NCBI GenBank assembly: GCA_947498025.1
Contig: CANMJR010000004.1
Location: forward strand, 16,708-80,707
DNA: 64,000 nt
Reading direction: 5' to 3'
Origin: Helicobacteraceae bacterium
GTDB taxonomy: Bacteria; Campylobacterota; Campylobacteria; Campylobacterales; Sulfurimonadaceae
Part shown: in pieces, positions 6,051 through 45,764 of the stretch
Numbering within the stretch: position 1 is the first letter of the stretch
How the letters are laid out: every line of letters starts with the position of its first letter
The notes under the pieces: generated by a model
What the model saw: only the letters and a program-made list of their open reading frames with translations
Database searches by the model: none
Told to the model about the DNA's origin: nothing
Program-made: the position numbers and the translations under genes

Positions 6051-6111
6051 TTATACCCCATAAATTATTTTTTTGTTATTATATCATTTAATGATAAAAG
6101 GTCGCTTTACA

Positions 6112-6726
6112 ATGAAATATCTACTCTATCTTACTTTGCCGTGCTTACTTGTTGCTGATTCGAGTTTTATAACTATTATGGAATATTCCTCTCAGCTCTA
6201 CAAAAATCCAAGAGGAATCGGCTGTCAAAATTGCCATGGCGAAAAAGGCGAAGGCAAATTAGTTGCAAATTATATGCATAACAATGAGAAAAAAAATTTT
6301 GCCGGATCGGCTATCAATAAACTTGAATGGAGCACATTTTACTATGCACTCAACAGATCAAATAACGGCATGCCGCGATACTATTTAACGGAAAAAGAGA
6401 TTCAGGCACTCTATTTGTATATCAATGAAGATGAGCTCAGAAAAGCTGAAAAAGAGGCTCTCAAAACCAAAAATGAAACACCAAGAAAAGAGGCAGTGAA
6501 AACTGCGGCAGAAGAGCCGAAAATTCAAAAAATAGAACCAAAAGTTCAAAAAACAGAGCCGAAAAAAGAGGAATTTAAAGTTCAAAAAATAGAACCAAAA
6601 GCAGAACCAAAAAAAGAGAAACCTCAAATGAAGATGGAAGATCCTAGATATCAAACATTTCAAAAGATGGAACCAAAAAATGAAGGACCGAAGAAGTTGA
6701 GATATGAAGACTATCCAGATAGATAA
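6112..6726 (+). CDS. Monoheme c-type cytochrome with Lys/Glu/Pro-rich repetitive C-terminal tail
   Basis: Signal peptide, CQNCH heme motif, distal Met in GMP; likely ATG 6112; QKIEPK-type repeats. Confidence 0.85.
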   Translation: MKYLLYLTLPCLLVADSSFITIMEYSSQLYKNPRGIGCQNCHGEKGEGKLVANYMHNNEKKNFAGSAINKLEWSTFYYALNRSNNGMPRYYLTEKEIQALYLYINEDELRKAEKEALKTKNETPRKEAVKTAAEEPKIQKIEPKVQKTEPKKEEFKVQKIEPKAEPKKEKPQMKMEDPRYQTFQKMEPKNEGPKKLRYEDYPDR

Positions 6727-7651
6727 TTTAAACAGTGTTTCTTTAGCTTTTGAAAATAGGGATTTAGAGGCACTTCGTAAGTTAGCCGTTCCAACGCAAA
6801 GAGTTGTAAACAGAAGCAGTGATTTCTCTTCGGTTTTGATGCTCTCATGCAATAATATAAAACACCTCTTAAAGATTGACACATTAGAGGCTGAGTGCAT
6901 AATATTGAATTTGGAAGATGGAGTGAGCAGGGAAGATAAACCTTTTGCACTTCTTCTTTGTGCCATTTTTTTATCGCAACACACGCATAGCAATAAAAAA
7001 CTTGTTGTGAGGGTCAATGCTCTTGATGAGGGGGGATACGAGGAGATAAGTTATTTAAACCGATTTATGCCTGATGCCATAAGGGTTCCAAAGATTAAAA
7101 ACAGGGATGAAGTCACATCTGTTTTGGAGCGTTTAAACAGCGATATAGAACTTCATCTCTCAATAGAAACAGCCTCGGCATGGCAGAACCTGCACTCATT
7201 TGCAGTAGATGGAAGAGTTACCGCTTTTTATCTGGGGATACTGGATCTGTTTGCAGATATGAAACTCCCTCAATCTTTAATAAAAAGAGATAATCCGACC
7301 ATGCTATACATACTTTCCCATTTTTTAGTAACATGTAAATCCATGGGTGTCAAAGCTGTCTCTTTTGTCTATCAAGAGTTTCAAAATCTTGAAGAGTTTG
7401 GCATGTGGCTATCTTTAGAAAAAAGCATGGGTTATGATGCAAAAGGGTGTATCTCTCCAAACCAAGTTATGTTGGTCAATGAGATTTTTTCACAAAGTAT
7501 GCAAGAATTAGAAAGAGCAAAAAAAATAGTAGAGCTTTTTGAATTGAACAAAGAAAAGGGAATAAGCGGTTTTGTGGATGATGAATATGGTTTTATAGAT
7601 GAGCCAATTTATAAAGGAGCTTTGAATTTATTAACTGATGTTACGCACTAA
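6704..7651 (+). CDS. HpcH/HpaI aldolase / citrate lyase beta-like protein
   Basis: LNLEDGV, VVRVN, IRVPK, IET, KGCISPNQV, FIDEP motifs of the CitE-like family. Confidence 0.85.
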   Translation: MKTIQIDNLNSVSLAFENRDLEALRKLAVPTQRVVNRSSDFSSVLMLSCNNIKHLLKIDTLEAECIILNLEDGVSREDKPFALLLCAIFLSQHTHSNKKLVVRVNALDEGGYEEISYLNRFMPDAIRVPKIKNRDEVTSVLERLNSDIELHLSIETASAWQNLHSFAVDGRVTAFYLGILDLFADMKLPQSLIKRDNPTMLYILSHFLVTCKSMGVKAVSFVYQEFQNLEEFGMWLSLEKSMGYDAKGCISPNQVMLVNEIFSQSMQELERAKKIVELFELNKEKGISGFVDDEYGFIDEPIYKGALNLLTDVTH

Positions 7652-7752
7652 AACGAACGCGTCCGTTTTAGTGGCAGGGACAAATTGTCCCTACAACCCC
7701 CTAAAGCTACAAAAAACTTTGTTTTTCGAGAATTACAAAGGGCGTAACATCA
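7636..7752 (+). repeat. Structured interspersed repeat copy 1 (117 bp, MITE/REP-like) with 11-bp terminal inverted repeats
   Basis: TGATGTTACGC at 7636-7646 and GCGTAACATCA at 7742-7752; internal hairpins cactaaaacg/cgttttagtg and agggaca/tgtccct; near-identical to 20018-20120. Confidence 0.9.
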
Positions 7753-7792
7753 TTTAATAACAAAAGCTGTAATATTAAATCAAAGGAGTTAC

Positions 7793-19190: not shown

Positions 19191-19512
19191 AGATAAACAA
19201 GAAGAGCATGTTCCAAGAATAAAGCCTATCATAGAGGCTGCAGACAGCCTTTCTTTGGGTATTTCTATGGTTGTTGCAGTTCTTATGGGTGTTGGAATCG
19301 GTTATCTGCTTCGCAGATGGACAGATATCGGCTGGCTCTTTTGGGTCGGTGTCGGAATTGGAATTGCGGCAGCAATATTGAATGTCTATAAAGCCTACTC
19401 AAAACAGTACAAAGAGTATGAAGAGTTGGCAAAAGAGCCACGCTATGCAATCAAAAAACAGCTTGACAATAAAGACGACGACGAAGAGGATTATGGTGAA
19501 AAGAGCTATTAA
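19183..19512 (+). CDS. AtpZ/AtpI-family small membrane protein
   Basis: Two TM helices with G-x-x-L-G pattern; directly after hemL. Confidence 0.75.
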
Positions 19513-20002
19513 GCTTATAGCGCTGAGCGAGTTTTTTGTTCTACTCTCCTCTTTTATCTCTTTTGGTTTTTATATGAACCTTCAAATTGCCTATTTGAGT
19601 AGTCTCTTTATTATTTTGGGCGCATCCTTTGCTTATAAAAAAATGGTAAATGCACAAGTTGAAGCGGATATTATAAAAGAAGAGAGAGATTTTTTGGATG
19701 AGCTAGAAGACCCACATGGGCTTTATGACGATGAACCTATAAATGAAGCACCTGCAGAGGAGCTTGATCTTAAAACTATAGTTCAAGAAGAGAAAAAAAA
19801 GATAAAAATAGTGAATTTTAAAGATATGAAAAATGGCTCAAAAGCAGGGTTTTCACTCTTTAGACTCATTCCCTACCTCTTTTTAGTTTTAGGATTTATC
19901 GCACTTAAAAACAATGAGCTTTTAGATATAACTGTTTATCTTCCATCGTTGTTAGTTGGGATTATTGTAGGCTATTTGAGTTCTAAAGAGATTTTTGCTT
20001 AA
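19493..20002 (+). CDS. Conserved integral membrane protein
   Basis: Likely ATG 19493 (MVKRAIKL), four TM helices with acidic loop. Confidence 0.7.
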   Translation: MVKRAIKLIALSEFFVLLSSFISFGFYMNLQIAYLSSLFIILGASFAYKKMVNAQVEADIIKEERDFLDELEDPHGLYDDEPINEAPAEELDLKTIVQEEKKKIKIVNFKDMKNGSKAGFSLFRLIPYLFLVLGFIALKNNELLDITVYLPSLLVGIIVGYLSSKEIFA

Positions 20003-20017
20003 AAGTGCATAAAACAC

Positions 20018-20120
20018 CTTGTAACTCTCGAAAAATAAAGTTTTTCGTAGCTTTAGGGGGTTGTAGGGACTTTAGTCCCTGCCACTAAAACGGACTTGTT
20101 CGTTTTAGTGCGTAACATCA
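20018..20120 (-). repeat. Structured interspersed repeat copy 2 (one terminal repeat only)
   Basis: Reverse complement aligns to 7636-7740 with about 7 differences; lies between convergent genes. Confidence 0.9.
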
Positions 20121-20128
20121 AATTTCGC

Positions 20129-20812
20129 TTAAGCTGTAATCATTGGAATATTTATTGTTATTTTGCTCTGTATGTCTATATAAAAGTTACTGTTTGAGAC
20201 TAAAGTTTGCAATTCATTGGCTTTTTTTTCATCTAAAATAGCACCACTAACTTCAATAGAAAAAATACTGTACTTCTTATCTTCAAATTTTATATGTTCA
20301 CCGACTCTGTAGTATATTTTCGTGTTGATTTCGCTGCTCTCTTTAAAACATGCATATATTTTACTTAATATTTTTATGAAACTATTTGAATTTATTACTA
20401 TTTCCGGGATAGTCGGGTCAAATTCTTTGCCAAATTTAATTTTTGAGCCTATGGAGTTTGTAGATATACATAAATCAACAAGTGTATAGATATTTGTAAG
20501 TTCACCCGCGGGTTTTGGATTTTTAAGCTTGAATGCCGGTGCTTGATAGAGTTTGATGCCTATCTGCTCATCATCCTCATATCCAACTGTGATACCAAAA
20601 AATTTATATCTTCCAAATTCAAGCTCTAAAAATGTAGTTTTAAAACCAAAGGATACGCTCGAATAAGTTGTGGCAAGTTCAAATAGTTCAGAAGTTGAAA
20701 CACTTCCAAGTAAGAATTGAGCCTCTGTATTGAGTGAGATAATCTTTGCATTTGAGCTAAAGAGTATAAAGGGATTATAATCATACTCTAGCCACTGCTG
20801 TTCAAAAGTCAT
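20129..20812 (-). CDS. Conserved hypothetical protein (PAS-like N-terminus, degenerate kinase-like C-terminus)
   Basis: Follows rpoD; EYDYNPFILF...LNTEAQFLL PAS-like start; no H-box recognised. Confidence 0.65.
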   Translation of the reverse strand: MTFEQQWLEYDYNPFILFSSNAKIISLNTEAQFLLGSVSTSELFELATTYSSVSFGFKTTFLELEFGRYKFFGITVGYEDDEQIGIKLYQAPAFKLKNPKPAGELTNIYTLVDLCISTNSIGSKIKFGKEFDPTIPEIVINSNSFIKILSKIYACFKESSEINTKIYYRVGEHIKFEDKKYSIFSIEVSGAILDEKKANELQTLVSNSNFYIDIQSKITINIPMITA

Positions 20813-44025: not shown

Positions 44026-44598
44026 ATGATTAGTAAAACAAGAGTAACAAAAGAGACTGATATAGAGATTTCACTTAATCTACATGGAACTGGTTCAAGT
44101 GATATAAATACCGGTGTAGGTTTTTTAGACCACATGTTAGAGAGTTTTTCAAAGCACTCTTTGATTGATTTAAACATTGAGTGCAAAGGTGATACGCATA
44201 TTGATGATCACCACAGCGTTGAAGATATTGGGATTGTTTTAGGTTCTTTAGTTCATGAAGCAATCTATCCAGTTAAAAATATGGAACGATTTGGAAGTGC
44301 AAATATTGTAATGGATGAGGCCTGTGTGAGTTGTGATTTAGACCTTAGCAACAGACCATACTTAGTTTATGAAGTAGAGGTAGATGGTAAAATAGGTCAG
44401 TTTGACTCGGAACTTGTTGAGGAGTTCTTTAGAGCTTTTGTATTAAATGCAAAAATCAGTGTGCACATAATTGTATTAAGAGGAAAAAATAAACATCACA
44501 TTATAGAGGCAGCTTTTAAATCTTTAGCCGTAGCTCTGCGTCGCGCGATGATGAGAAATGAGAGAATAGGAATTCCAAGTACCAAAGATGTTTTATGA
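44026..44598 (+). CDS. hisB: Imidazoleglycerol-phosphate dehydratase
   Basis: FLDHML, DDHHSVEDIG, NKHHIIEAAFK. Confidence 0.96.
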   Translation: MISKTRVTKETDIEISLNLHGTGSSDINTGVGFLDHMLESFSKHSLIDLNIECKGDTHIDDHHSVEDIGIVLGSLVHEAIYPVKNMERFGSANIVMDEACVSCDLDLSNRPYLVYEVEVDGKIGQFDSELVEEFFRAFVLNAKISVHIIVLRGKNKHHIIEAAFKSLAVALRRAMMRNERIGIPSTKDVL

Positions 44599-45107
44599 TT
44601 AAATTAATTGTTTTAGATGTTGATGGTTGTTTAACTGATGGTAAAATCACATATTCAGAAAGTGGTATTGAGAGTAAAAATTTTAACATTAAAGATGGTC
44701 TTGGAATAAGTGCTTGGGTGAAGATTGGAAATCAGGTGGCTATTATCACCGGACGAAACTCCAAAATAGTTCAAAAAAGAGCAGAAGAATTGGGCATACA
44801 GCACGTTTTTCAAGGTATCAAAGATAAAGATAGAGTTTTAAAAGAGTTAGTAAAGTCGCTCGGGTTTAGCCTTGAAGAGGTTGGAGCAATTGGTGATGAT
44901 TTAAACGATTTTCACATGCTAAGCCTTGTTGGAAGAAGTTTTACTCCAAAGAATGGGGTAAAAGAGATAAAGAATATGGTCAACACCACGCTTTCTCTGG
45001 ATGGCGGAGAGGGTGCAGTAAGAGAAATGATAGATATTTTAGTGGATGAAAATAGTCAGAGAGAAGATTTTATGGCAGTTTGGATAAAAAAGATAGCTGA
45101 ATTTTAA
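44595..45107 (+). CDS. kdsC: KDO-8-phosphate phosphatase
   Basis: LDVDGCLTDG, IKDGLG, GDDLND, GEGAVRE. Confidence 0.93.
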   Translation: MIKLIVLDVDGCLTDGKITYSESGIESKNFNIKDGLGISAWVKIGNQVAIITGRNSKIVQKRAEELGIQHVFQGIKDKDRVLKELVKSLGFSLEEVGAIGDDLNDFHMLSLVGRSFTPKNGVKEIKNMVNTTLSLDGGEGAVREMIDILVDENSQREDFMAVWIKKIAEF

Positions 45108-45119
45108 AAACTTATTTTT

Positions 45120-45236
45120 CTTAAAAAACGGAGTTTTTTCTAAAGAAACTTCGTTTTGTAGCATAAGGAAAGTTGTAAGAACTTCTGCATCAGTCACCTA
45201 AATGGACGCGTTCGTTTGGTGCGTAACATCAGTTAA
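45120..45236 (-). repeat. Diverged copy 3 of the structured repeat
   Basis: Reverse strand begins TTAACTGATGTTACGCAC-caaacgaacgcgtcc as in copy 1; retains acaac and gctacaaaa anchors. Confidence 0.7.
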
Positions 45237-45239
45237 AAG

Positions 45240-45764
45240 GTGGGTACCATTAATATAAATGTTTTTTTTCTTTTTGTTACGAGTAGTCTGATGATGATTT
45301 TTTTTCTCTTTGAGCCATTAAATATAAGAGAACAAAATTTTACAGATGTTCCTCTCTTTGAGATGTCCTCATTTACCCTCTTAGAGTTTAATGATAAAAA
45401 TTTAATAACTCTTATGACTGGGAATAGTGCTGTGCGCTATAGCGACCGTTATAAAGTTGCAAATATAGACTATACAGACAATTCAAAAGGGTATAGGGCG
45501 AATATGAAGGCAAGTGACGGGCTTTATCAAAATGAGATAATTGAATTAAAAGGGGATGTTGTTTATACAAGAGAAGATGGTTTAACATTTAAATCGCAAA
45601 CAGCAGATTATAATAACATAACAAAAGTTGCACACACCGATAGTGACTATGTTTCATATCAAGATAAAAATAGAGTTATTGGCTCATCGCTCATATATAA
45701 TAATGTTTTAAAAAAGATTGAGTCAAAAAATATTGTTGCAAACTATCAACTACAAGAGAGATAA
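45240..45764 (+). CDS. lptC: LPS export protein LptC
   Basis: N-terminal TM then beta-jellyroll-type sequence; between kdsC and lptA. Confidence 0.8.
   Translation: MGTININVFFLFVTSSLMMIFFLFEPLNIREQNFTDVPLFEMSSFTLLEFNDKNLITLMTGNSAVRYSDRYKVANIDYTDNSKGYRANMKASDGLYQNEIIELKGDVVYTREDGLTFKSQTADYNNITKVAHTDSDYVSYQDKNRVIGSSLIYNNVLKKIESKNIVANYQLQER

Follow-up and report, generated by a model that had tools for sequence, protein, structure and literature searches.

Correia/NEMIS elements of Neisseria have 26-nt repeats and duplicate a TA target. The element described here resembles them: both are gene-less units of 100–160 nt with terminal inverted repeats, and both have short and long forms distinguished by an internal segment. 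Both reach a hundred or more copies per small genome, lie adjacent to genes, and form hairpins when transcribed, and the cognate transposase is not known for either. However, the present element has 14-nt repeats, a 7-bp duplication, four internal hairpins, and an invariant linker; it has no sequence similarity to Correia/NEMIS and lives in another host phylum. The structured repeats ERIC/IRU, RUP, and BOX are likewise assembled from modules, contain hairpins in which base changes are compensated, and lie between genes or in 3′-UTRs, but their sequences are unrelated, and mobility with a 7-bp duplication is demonstrated directly by empty sites in the present case. Like the REP/REPIN elements, the family consists of abundant extragenic palindromes, can be read as having a GTAG beside a short G+C-rich stem, and occurs in a genome with Y1-type genes. 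It differs from them in its terminal repeats and target duplication, and it does not border the local Y1 genes. To our knowledge, REPs and IS200/IS605-type elements have neither terminal inverted repeats nor a target duplication.

In this study, we analyzed a locus in a window of 64,000 nucleotides (the whole stretch of DNA examined) from a Sulfurimonas genome. The locus is very probably one copy of a MITE of Campylobacterales, a non-autonomous element that transposes by a cut-or-copy mechanism and is present in high copy number.

Anatomy of the element and its copies in the window

The family falls into two size classes, a full element of approximately 141 nt and a form of approximately 185 nt with an extra hairpin module. 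The terminal inverted repeats are 14 nt long (CTGATGTTACGCAC and GTGCGTAACATCAG), and their cells are complementary in 85–88% of cases compared with at most 53% when the partners are slid. The 5′ repeat reaches outward to a C/G pair, as indicated by the empty-site alignments and a copy from another family of bacteria (L204), and the 3′ end has the consensus ...CATCAG. Stem 1, an A/T-rich stem of 10 bp, takes in the inner part of the left repeat and is followed by stem 2 (AGGGAC/GTCCCT) and a near-invariant unpaired linker, CAACCCCCTAAAGCTAC. The linker is at least 95% conserved at most columns among the copies of the host genome, where it has 90 matches with no more than one mismatch. After the linker come stem 3, which optionally bears the 44-nt extra hairpin, a variable spacer, and stem 4, in which the 3′ repeat serves as the right arm. 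Other lineages carry unrelated hairpins at the stem 3 position, such as CCCGCATC..GGATGCGGG. Folding predicts the four hairpins with z-scores of −7.1 (RNA) and −6.8 (DNA). The copies (119–190 nt) are shorter than the MITE limit of approximately 600 bp and have no coding capacity; neighboring ORFs only enter their ends.

Three copies were claimed in the window from the sequence alone, and all three exist. Copy 1 occupies 7635–7753 on the plus strand, including the terminal C and T (core, 7636–7752), and is a short form of 119 nt whose ends read TGATGTTACGC...GCGTAACATCA as described. It comprises the 5′ terminal inverted repeat CTGATGTTACGCAC (7635–7648), stem 1 (7646–7673; CACTAAAACG, loop AACGCGTC, CGTTTTAGTG), stem 2 (7676–7692; AGGGAC, loop AAATT, GTCCCT), the linker ACAACCCCCTAAAGCTAC (7693–7710), which is near-invariant family-wide, stem 3 (7707–7730; CT(A)CAAAAAAC, loop TTT, GTTTTTCGAG), which is the site of the 44-nt module in the long form, and a remnant of the 3′ terminal inverted repeat, GCGTAACATCA plus T (7742–7753), all on the plus strand. 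Read on the other strand, stem 2 is the "GTAG-tagged hairpin" of the sequence-only reading. The copy is bordered by the plus-strand target-site duplication TTATTAA (7628–7634) and TTAATAA (7754–7760), which match at six of seven positions. Copy 1 is atypical because an internal deletion of approximately 25 nt took the left arm and loop of stem 4. The upstream ORF (6704–7651) enters it by 16 nt and uses the TAA of the element (7649–7651) as its stop codon.

Copy 2 (19993–20120, minus strand) is intact in its 5′ repeat, stems 1–3, linker, and the left arm of stem 4. It has lost the other arm of that stem together with the 3′ repeat, in agreement with the earlier description of a lost second terminal repeat, and identity to copy 1 is 92% over 103 nt. 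It forms the whole spacer between the convergent ORFs 19382–20002 (plus strand) and 20129–20812 (minus strand). Copy 3 (45109–45232, minus strand), flanked by ORFs 44595–45107 and 45240–45764, had been called diverged; it is a decayed long-form copy with 75% identity that scores 58.5 bits with the long model. It keeps a complete 5′ repeat, CTGATGTTACGCAC, followed by an imperfect stem 1 and a degenerate stem 2 and linker, and has no 3′ repeat. The window also holds many short two-copy repeats.

Copy number, distribution and insertion sites

The family is far larger than the three copies first proposed. The genome-wide and cross-relative search suggested by the sequence-only reading gave 114–120 loci across contigs of the host genome (120 by nhmmer), amounting to 15.7 kb or 0.54% of the 2.9-Mb genome, and 17 of 41 relatives carry the element. 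The similarity of the window copies could be regarded as a chance or low-complexity artifact of an AT-rich genome, given a host G+C content of 36% and the frequency of short two-copy repeats in the window. The census refutes this explanation: dozens of loci have BLAST E-values of 1e-61 to 1e-30, nhmmer recovers the 120 loci, and a reversed-pattern control for the terminal repeat gave 0–1 matches against up to 65 for the real pattern.

The distribution within the order is patchy: the element was seen in 32 of the 301 genomes and 13 of the 89 genera sampled. Among 401 genomes sampled from the phylum, no match fell outside the order. In other families, full-length matches reach 82–85% identity, and the carriers among these include a Sulfurospirillum MAG with approximately 100 first-look candidate copies. 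The sister species, G019, also has approximately 100 candidate copies. The linker motif was seen in contigs of Sulfurimonas, Sulfuricurvum, Sulfurovum, and Sulfurospirillum. The plasmid records yielded a single match, an unannotated partial copy in Sulfuricurvum kujiense, and the phage records searched gave no element-like match. Identity with an Rfam family, which had been named as a possible refutation, was not found: the 64-kb window gave no matches at the gathering score, and the element received only chance-level matches (E above 1) at a permissive threshold. The literature on repeats and MITEs of Sulfurimonas and Epsilonproteobacteria did not contain a description of the family.

The copies are mostly intergenic (105 of 111) and are concentrated in convergent gaps, which hold 34 of 101 copies but make up 12% of gaps (p=6e-9). 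They are the entire spacer in many convergent gene pairs. No orientation bias relative to genes was found (31:23, p=0.34). Gene ends lie −10 to +16 nt from the element boundary in 71% of cases, and 39 of 118 facing genes end inside the element, 10 of them at the terminal TGA and eight at the TAA, at positions 14–16. Because each end contains a stop codon, genes hit near their 3′ end terminate inside the element. A simple scan of the window copies found no canonical terminator or promoter.

Insertion duplicates 7 bp of AT-rich sequence, often TTAnnnn. The flanking 7-mers match at six or more of seven positions in nine of 29 full copies, five of which match perfectly, compared with 2.8% of mismatched pairs (permutation p=0.0002). 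The L204 copy shares the C...G ends, and its 7-bp duplication, TAGATAA, is perfect. A recognizable duplication persists in only about one-third of the full copies. A 9-bp duplication model gave a weaker signal, with mismatches systematically at two positions that are the element's own C and G. A TTAA duplication, as suggested by the first reading, was also rejected: the "TTAA" flanks sit within the 7-bp TTATTAA/TTAATAA, and the family-wide 7-mers, the empty sites, and the other genomes all indicate a duplication of 7 bp.

To search for empty sites, the concatenated flanks of the 29 full copies were compared with the genome of the sister species G019, which has 87% amino acid identity in a neighboring gene. 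Approximately 14 of the 29 sites are contiguous (empty) in G019, often 8–10 nt shorter, and approximately eight are filled. Three clean empty sites hold a single 7-mer: C1:73227 (TTACTTT), C6:85570 (CTTATAT), and C12:44140 (TTAAACT). The first reading had proposed looking for empty sites with a single TTAA; the single-copy target is a 7-mer. The site of copy 1 contains approximately 120 nt of unrelated sequence in G019 and thus is not a clean empty site. Many insertions postdate the divergence of the two species. Lineage-specific and shared copies resemble the consensus to the same degree (0.879 for each group), which gives no indication of a very recent burst. At two "shared" sites, the element is oppositely oriented in the two species, which needs repeated hot-spot insertion or in-place inversion.

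Structure conservation and competing explanations

Because a MAFFT alignment misplaces stems 3 and 4 between lineages, RNAalifold found no stem other than stem 1 on it. Covariation was instead evaluated with a stated structure on 47 sequences and 500 shuffles. Both-side changes occurred in 17 pairs compared with 8.6 ± 1.7 in the shuffles, none of which reached 17, and paired cells amounted to 90.8% compared with at most 52% when the partners were slid. Stems 1, 3, and 4 covary strongly. Among the copies of the host genome, stem 1 has 97% of its cells paired and 73 cells doubly substituted. The stem has 12 distinct perfectly complementary 10-bp haplotypes; among the 47 sequences, helix 1 has both-side changes in seven of its 10 pairs. 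The structure-preserving change proposed from the window copies is thus real in these three stems. The particular claim that stem 2 covaries was only partly correct. The A/T versus T/A swap occurs family-wide at the loop-closing position 47:50 (AT in 78 copies, TA in 16, and other combinations in 17), but no compensatory change was found in the six helix pairs, whose sequence is conserved. The closing pair stays complementary even where it would be of little use to a hairpin. In 13 copies, a replaced arm of stem 2 has no compensating change in the other arm, and the stem is broken in approximately 12% of copies.

Retention of structure and the reverse-strand motif might be explained by a REP/REPIN-type element in which the GTAG-tagged palindrome of stem 2 is the substrate of a RAYT (Y1/HUH) enzyme and copies spread as single-stranded hairpins. 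GTAG-GGAC...GTCC-CTGC can indeed be read on the reverse strand of most copies, as the sequence-only reading noted, and the genome contains 85 GTAGGGAC. The hairpins are kept by structure and not by sequence, and the persistent complementarity of the stem 2 closing pair would be expected if DNA symmetry matters. The genome also encodes two Y1 (RAYT-like) transposase genes (C47:1967–2806 and C22:2047–2790), whose products were assigned by eye from the HxH-type motif ...SNHYHLL.... However, no copy of the element adjoins either gene; they are flanked by a different motif, GTGCCTGACACC, with 17 copies listed at three loci. Moreover, the AG of the "GTAG" is paired within the stem, stem 2 is broken in the fraction of copies given above, and the terminal inverted repeats, 7-bp duplication, and clean single-copy empty sites are not known from such elements. 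The REP/RAYT half of the proposed "hybrid" was therefore abandoned, and we regard this origin as extremely improbable.

Alternatively, the family could consist primarily of structured RNA or DNA motifs with a function, such as bidirectional 3′-end protection or termination modules or a protein-binding site, kept by locus-level selection with mobility incidental or extinct. In favor of this are the strong covariation in stems 1, 3, and 4, the near-invariance of the unpaired linker, the swapping of whole stems in other lineages for hairpins of unrelated sequence at the equivalent position, and the many convergent pairs whose whole spacer is the element. It also fits a comparison of six orthologous sites in the two species, in which the left half, from the repeat through stems 1 and 2 to the linker, is 89.5% identical and the right half 73%, with mostly coding flanks at 92.9%. 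The segmental differences at orthologous sites, however, resemble sequence exchange among copies more than selection acting site by site. The sister species lacks the element at about half of the sites sampled, and neighboring genes therefore do without it. The lack of an Rfam match, of an orientation bias relative to genes, and of a canonical terminator or promoter in the scanned window copies also argues against such a family, and G.T (G.U) versus A.C mismatches showed no consistent strand asymmetry. We consider this explanation very unlikely. The hairpins of the element are unusually well preserved, and transposition by itself accounts neither for the invariant linker nor for whole stems being replaced with their structure kept. 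A further, rather unlikely proposal is that the left half, made up of stems 1 and 2 and the CAACCCCCTAAAGCTAC linker together with stem 3, forms a functional module of its own, acting as folded RNA or single-stranded DNA, for example in protein binding or 3′-end protection. The transposon would have delivered this module to gene ends across Campylobacterales, and hosts would keep and homogenize it while the right half decays.

Transposase candidates and implications of the probable MITE

The MITE reading rests on the small non-coding size, terminal repeats, fixed 7-bp duplication, dispersed copies, and single-target empty sites; the class also includes full-length autonomous elements with the same ends, and none was found here. 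The sequence-only proposal of an unnamed non-autonomous element agrees with these repeats, the duplication, about 120 copies, and the empty sites, and with the lack of an ORF, Rfam family, or paper. A transposase or RAYT gene flanked by the same ends, which that reading had suggested looking for, was not encountered in the host genome, 16 relatives, related loci, or viral contigs. Repeat pairs 0.3–6 kb apart enclose only housekeeping genes in the host, other genomes, and related loci, and none of those in the host genome encloses a transposase with these ends. A terminal-repeat scan of 16 other genomes and searches of approximately 0.8 Mb of related loci and 1 Mb of viral contigs likewise revealed no transposase with the element ends. 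The viral contigs gave 14-mer chance matches and two short candidates with unrelated interiors, one with a clean duplication. The latter (L287) is a 94-nt element with an unrelated interior and the same kind of ends (5′ CTGGAGTTACGCAC, with two differences; 3′ GTGCGTAACATCAG, exact) and a perfect 7-bp duplication, TTAATAA. The abundant IS of the host genome, collapsed at contig ends, was rejected as a partner; its repeat is different (GACTTCTTGCAAAACTC). Some accepted MITE families, such as Correia, are likewise not known to have an autonomous element, and the missing partner therefore does not exclude membership in this class.

We propose that a DDE transposase acting in trans would recognize the terminal repeats and make a 7-bp staggered cut. 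The best candidate is an IS4-family enzyme of the ISPepr1 type. Members of the ISPepr1 subgroup of IS4 have 5′-CT ends, 7–8-bp direct repeats, and AT-rich targets (PMC2266710), and the element shares the CT ends, a 7-bp duplication, and AT-rich targets. The ISPepr1 end consensus, YT-AA-YTT---A (PMC2266710), matches CTGATGTTACGCAC at six of eight specified positions by our own count. In contrast, ISPepr1 elements are 1.5–1.6 kb long and encode a DDE/YREK transposase, whereas the MITE encodes none. In 16 genomes, the flanks of PF01609 and PF00665 loci do not carry the element ends, and a DDE/YREK (DDE_Tnp_1, PF01609) gene bounded by these ends was not found; G019 has zero PF01609 matches despite its candidate copies. 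The link to the ISPepr1 subgroup is therefore a lead only. Copies come to lie a few bases from stop codons and between convergent genes, and their hairpins may be kept by some mix of a filter for transposition competence, use of the folded transcript (e.g., 3′-end protection), and gene conversion.

The element is an uncatalogued structured MITE, ordinary in kind, for which we found no earlier description. If it is missed in annotation, gene ends are distorted (39 genes of this genome terminate within a copy), synteny comparisons are broken, and copies can pass for small RNA genes. The family takes up approximately 0.5% of the genome, is present in many uncultured sulfur-oxidizing Campylobacterales, and provides a presence/absence marker between closely related Sulfurimonas lineages. 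If the ISPepr1-type lead is true, an orphan MITE family would be tied to a small, little-studied IS4 subgroup. The combination of mobility, a conserved multi-hairpin core, and no partner transposase makes the family a good case for studying why MITEs retain structure, with transposition competence, RNA function, and gene conversion as testable candidates.

Copies, anatomy and genic surroundings

The three stretches singled out by the sequence-only reading are present, and a repeat search of the window detected them as inverted repeats (I1/I2). Profile searches, with profiles built on full-length copies, placed exactly three element loci in the window, at 7636-7759 on the forward strand (copy 1) and at 19993-20120 (copy 2) and 45109-45231 (copy 3) on the reverse strand. 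In the window's own assembly (G000; 2.93 Mb, 102 contigs, 36% G+C), a BLAST search with copy 1 returned 165 HSPs at 114 loci, and the profile searches returned 120 loci, which together span 15.7 kb, 0.54% of the assembly. The earlier description as a three-copy family was a window effect, because the view was restricted to the window.

Aligning 54 copies together with their flanks, as well as copies in which both ends are present, indicated that the typical element is longer than copy 1. It consists of a 5' repeat, (C)TGATGTTACGCAC; stem 1 (CACTAAAACG, 8-nt loop, CGTTTTAGTG); stem 2, preceded by GGC (AGGGAC, 4-5-nt loop, GTCCCT); a linker, ACAACCCCCTAAAG; stem 3 (CT(A)CGAAAAAC, TTT, GTTTTTCGAG); a variable spacer; stem 4 (TTACGCACTTTT, loop, AAAAGTGCGTAA); and a 3' end, GGTCA(G) or CATCA(G). 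Copies fall into two size classes, ~141 nt and ~185 nt; in the longer one, stem 3 contains an added hairpin module of 44 nt with AAAAC direct repeats on both sides. The consensus folds into four hairpins (z = -7.1 as RNA, -6.8 as DNA). Copy 1 is missing ~25 nt that form the left arm of stem 4 and its loop; the loss brings its terminal repeats nearer each other and hence gave the neat picture of the sequence-only reading. In copy 2, stem 4 has no right arm and the 3' repeat is missing, and copy 3 is an old copy of the long form.

Relative to genes placed by a crude ORF-based model, 105 of the 111 copies of at least 80 nt are intergenic. Convergent gaps hold 34 of 101 copies and make up 12% of gaps (p = 6e-9); copies are rarer than expected in divergent gaps, and beside tandem genes their two orientations number 31 and 23 (p = 0.34). 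Copies are faced by 118 gene 3' ends, 71% of which fall between -10 and +16 nt relative to the element boundary. The stop codon falls within the element in 39 genes, the terminal TGA (of TGATG) serving 10 of them and the TAA at positions 14-16 another 8. The ORF at 6704-7651, ending in ...LLTDVTH*, takes its final codons and stop from copy 1. These positions would reflect a TA-rich target preference (TTA/TAA-like 7-mers) together with selection against insertions elsewhere. Nearby, tandem 36-nt repeats at 6527-6619 (repeat family D4), inside the ORF at 6073-6726, give a cytochrome-c-like lipoprotein its KIEPKVQK-type repeat.

Target duplication and candidate transposases

For 29 full copies, 200 + 200 nt of flank were joined into one query and searched against the sister species (G019; 87% amino-acid identity in the neighbouring gene). 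About 14 flank blocks are contiguous there, commonly 8-10 nt short of the query length; about eight are split by 120-190 nt, the site being filled in both species; and the remainder are rearranged. At C12:44140, pairwise alignment sets the empty site of G019, GAATTTAAACTAATAC, against the filled site of G000, GAATTTAAACT-C[TGATG...GGACA]G-TTAAACT-AATAC, and the same pattern recurs at C1:73227 (TTACTTT) and C6:85570 (CTTATAT). The duplication is therefore 7 bp, and the element itself runs from CTGATG to CATCAG, its repeats being 14 nt long. A 9-nt flank test had given a modest signal, with mismatches clustered at the two flank positions touching the element; retested with the 7-bp model, 9/29 copies match at 6 or more of 7 positions vs 2.8% of mismatched pairs (permutation p = 0.0002), and five of the 29 have perfect duplications. 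In another family, one genome has a copy set in a perfect TAGATAA duplication (L204). Copy 1 is flanked by the duplicates TTATTAA (7628-7634) and TTAATAA (7754-7760), of which the TTAA-c-...-t-TTAA arrangement was a partial view; TTAA-specific targeting is not borne out, and the clean empty-site orthologues foreseen by that reading do exist in G019, with a single 7-mer rather than TTAA alone.

The copy 1 locus was rejected as a clean empty site. The G019 orthologue of window 7652-7760 (L155:2047-2170) holds ~120 nt of unrelated intergenic sequence, and the upstream gene ends in ...GALYLIEKN* in G019 and ...GALNLLTDVTH* in G000. The insertion in G000 was therefore accompanied by the loss of the gene's original end and of the spacer.

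No transposase or RAYT gene flanked by the element's ends, as the earlier reading had envisaged, was found in G000, the related genomes and loci, or the viral contigs examined. Repeat pairs at IS-like spacing in G000, its relatives and related loci enclose housekeeping genes alone, no locus matching PF01609 or PF00665 in 16 carrier genomes bears the element's ends, and PF01609 matches are missing from G019 altogether. The abundant IS of G000, collapsed at ~32 contig ends, was rejected as partner on its different repeat, GACTTCTTGCAAAACTC, which has 45 matches in G000. It occupies ~17+15 contig ends (e.g. C8:1-150 and C6:1-155), and both IS ends finish in GAGTTTTGCAAGAAGTC. A ~90-nt palindromic derivative with its ends (C58, ~6412-6510) adjoins an element copy at C58:6227-6411 and has several copies in G019.

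The REP/RAYT half of the proposed hybrid is not supported: the motifs flanking the Y1 (RAYT-like) genes are GTGCCTGACACC, not the element, and the element has terminal repeats and a 7-bp duplication. The Y1/HUH (RAYT- or IS200-like) genes, with a C-terminal helix-turn-helix, are at C47:1967-2806, C47:3486-3785 and C22:2047-2790, where a short hairpin motif, AAAGAGTGCCTGACACCTTTTTT, is clustered; of its 17 copies, those listed are confined to three loci, on C6, C22 and C47. A protein of 470 aa that carries an HUH-like motif (..TPHIHMSLF..), encoded in two copies at C1:86129-87538 and C8:94484-95893 (at least 80% identical), resembles rolling-circle replication initiators of small phages and plasmids.

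A 94-nt element in a viral contig (L287:1826-1919; IMGVR_UViG_2574179789_000002) has a perfect 7-bp duplication, TTAATAA, and ends CTGGAGTTACGCAC / GTGCGTAACATCAG, with two differences in the 5' repeat and an exact 3' repeat. A ~94-nt candidate in another viral contig (L279:6737-6829) has ends CTGATGTTACGCAC / GTGCGTAACATCAA and flanks without a match. Both interiors are unrelated to the element and G+C-richer. Because L287 shares the ends and the 7-bp duplication around an unrelated interior, it suggests that the enzyme reads the ends and not the interior; transposases of one type may move MITEs that are unrelated to each other. In the IS4 subgroup table, ISPepr1 has ends YT-AA-YTT---A, 7-8 bp direct repeats, AT-rich targets and 5'-CT ends (PMC2266710), and the element's repeat agrees with this end consensus at 6/8 specified positions. 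An ISPepr1-type IS4 enzyme is the best lead to the source of movement, albeit a doubtful one.

Conservation of the hairpins and possible exchange between copies

Across all nhmmer-aligned copies of G000, paired cells amount to 97% in stem 1 (73 doubly substituted and 12 G.T cells), 92% in stem 3, 86% in stem 4, 85% in the terminal repeats and 82% in stem 2. Stem 1 occurs as 12 distinct haplotypes, each of 10 bp and perfectly complementary. Covariation claimed for stem 2 holds in part: the A/T-T/A swap is real at the loop-closing pair 47:50 (AT 78, TA 16, other 17), and the six helix pairs show no compensatory change, 13 copies carrying an uncompensated GCTGCTGC-type arm. Counts of G.T vs A.C mismatches show no strand-consistent asymmetry, so structure may be kept at either the DNA or the RNA level.

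In 47 full-length copies aligned across species on the structure stated here, 90.8% of cells are paired vs 85.5 +/- 0.3 in shuffles (reached by 0/500), and at most 52% pair when partners are slid. Structure-preserving change is upheld outside stem 2: 17 pairs have both sides changed vs 8.6 +/- 1.7 in shuffles, with 7 in helix 1, 5 each in helices 3 and 4, and 0 in helix 2. In distant lineages, unrelated hairpins stand in place of stems 1 and 3, and GGCAGGGAC...GTCCCT and the linker are fixed, partly due to the loci being fetched by exact linker match.

Eight sites filled in both G000 and G019 were compared, two of which hold the element in opposite orientations. At one site the 44-nt module and a stem-2 arm differ and the remainder is 95% identical (G000 C3:67502-67642 vs G019 C3:83506-83691); the whole AAAAC-bracketed module is present or absent, and the stem-2 left arm changes from AGGGA to TGCTG, a pattern suggestive of conversion from one copy to another or of slippage over a hairpin. 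Two sites show the same two-pair swap in both stem-3 arms, CGAAAAAC/GTTTTTCG vs CATAAAAC/GTTTTATG. Such differences fit copying between copies or hot-spot re-insertion, and because they are segmental and affect both arms at once, concerted evolution may lie behind part of the "compensatory" signal. The six same-orientation pairs are 89.5% identical in the left half and 73% in the right half, with mostly coding flanks at 92.9%; distance to consensus is equal (0.879) in lineage-specific and shared copies.

Distribution and kind of element

Contigs carrying the linker motif number >111 and come from Sulfurimonas, Sulfuricurvum, Sulfurovum, Sulfurospirillum and unclassified Campylobacterales MAGs. 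The 140-nt consensus matches 17/41 relatives and, within the order, 32/301 genomes and 13/89 genera; a 401-genome sample of the phylum gave no match outside the order. Full-length matches in other families reach 82-85% identity, and this similarity, with the patchy distribution, points to horizontal spread.

The element has every structural feature by which a MITE is recognised, a known partner transposase being the sole exception, and departs from REP/REPIN sequences in two defining features. It matches no Rfam family and we found no published description, in keeping with its earlier designation as unnamed. It is of a familiar kind, and what stands out is the close preservation of its hairpin core and linker.
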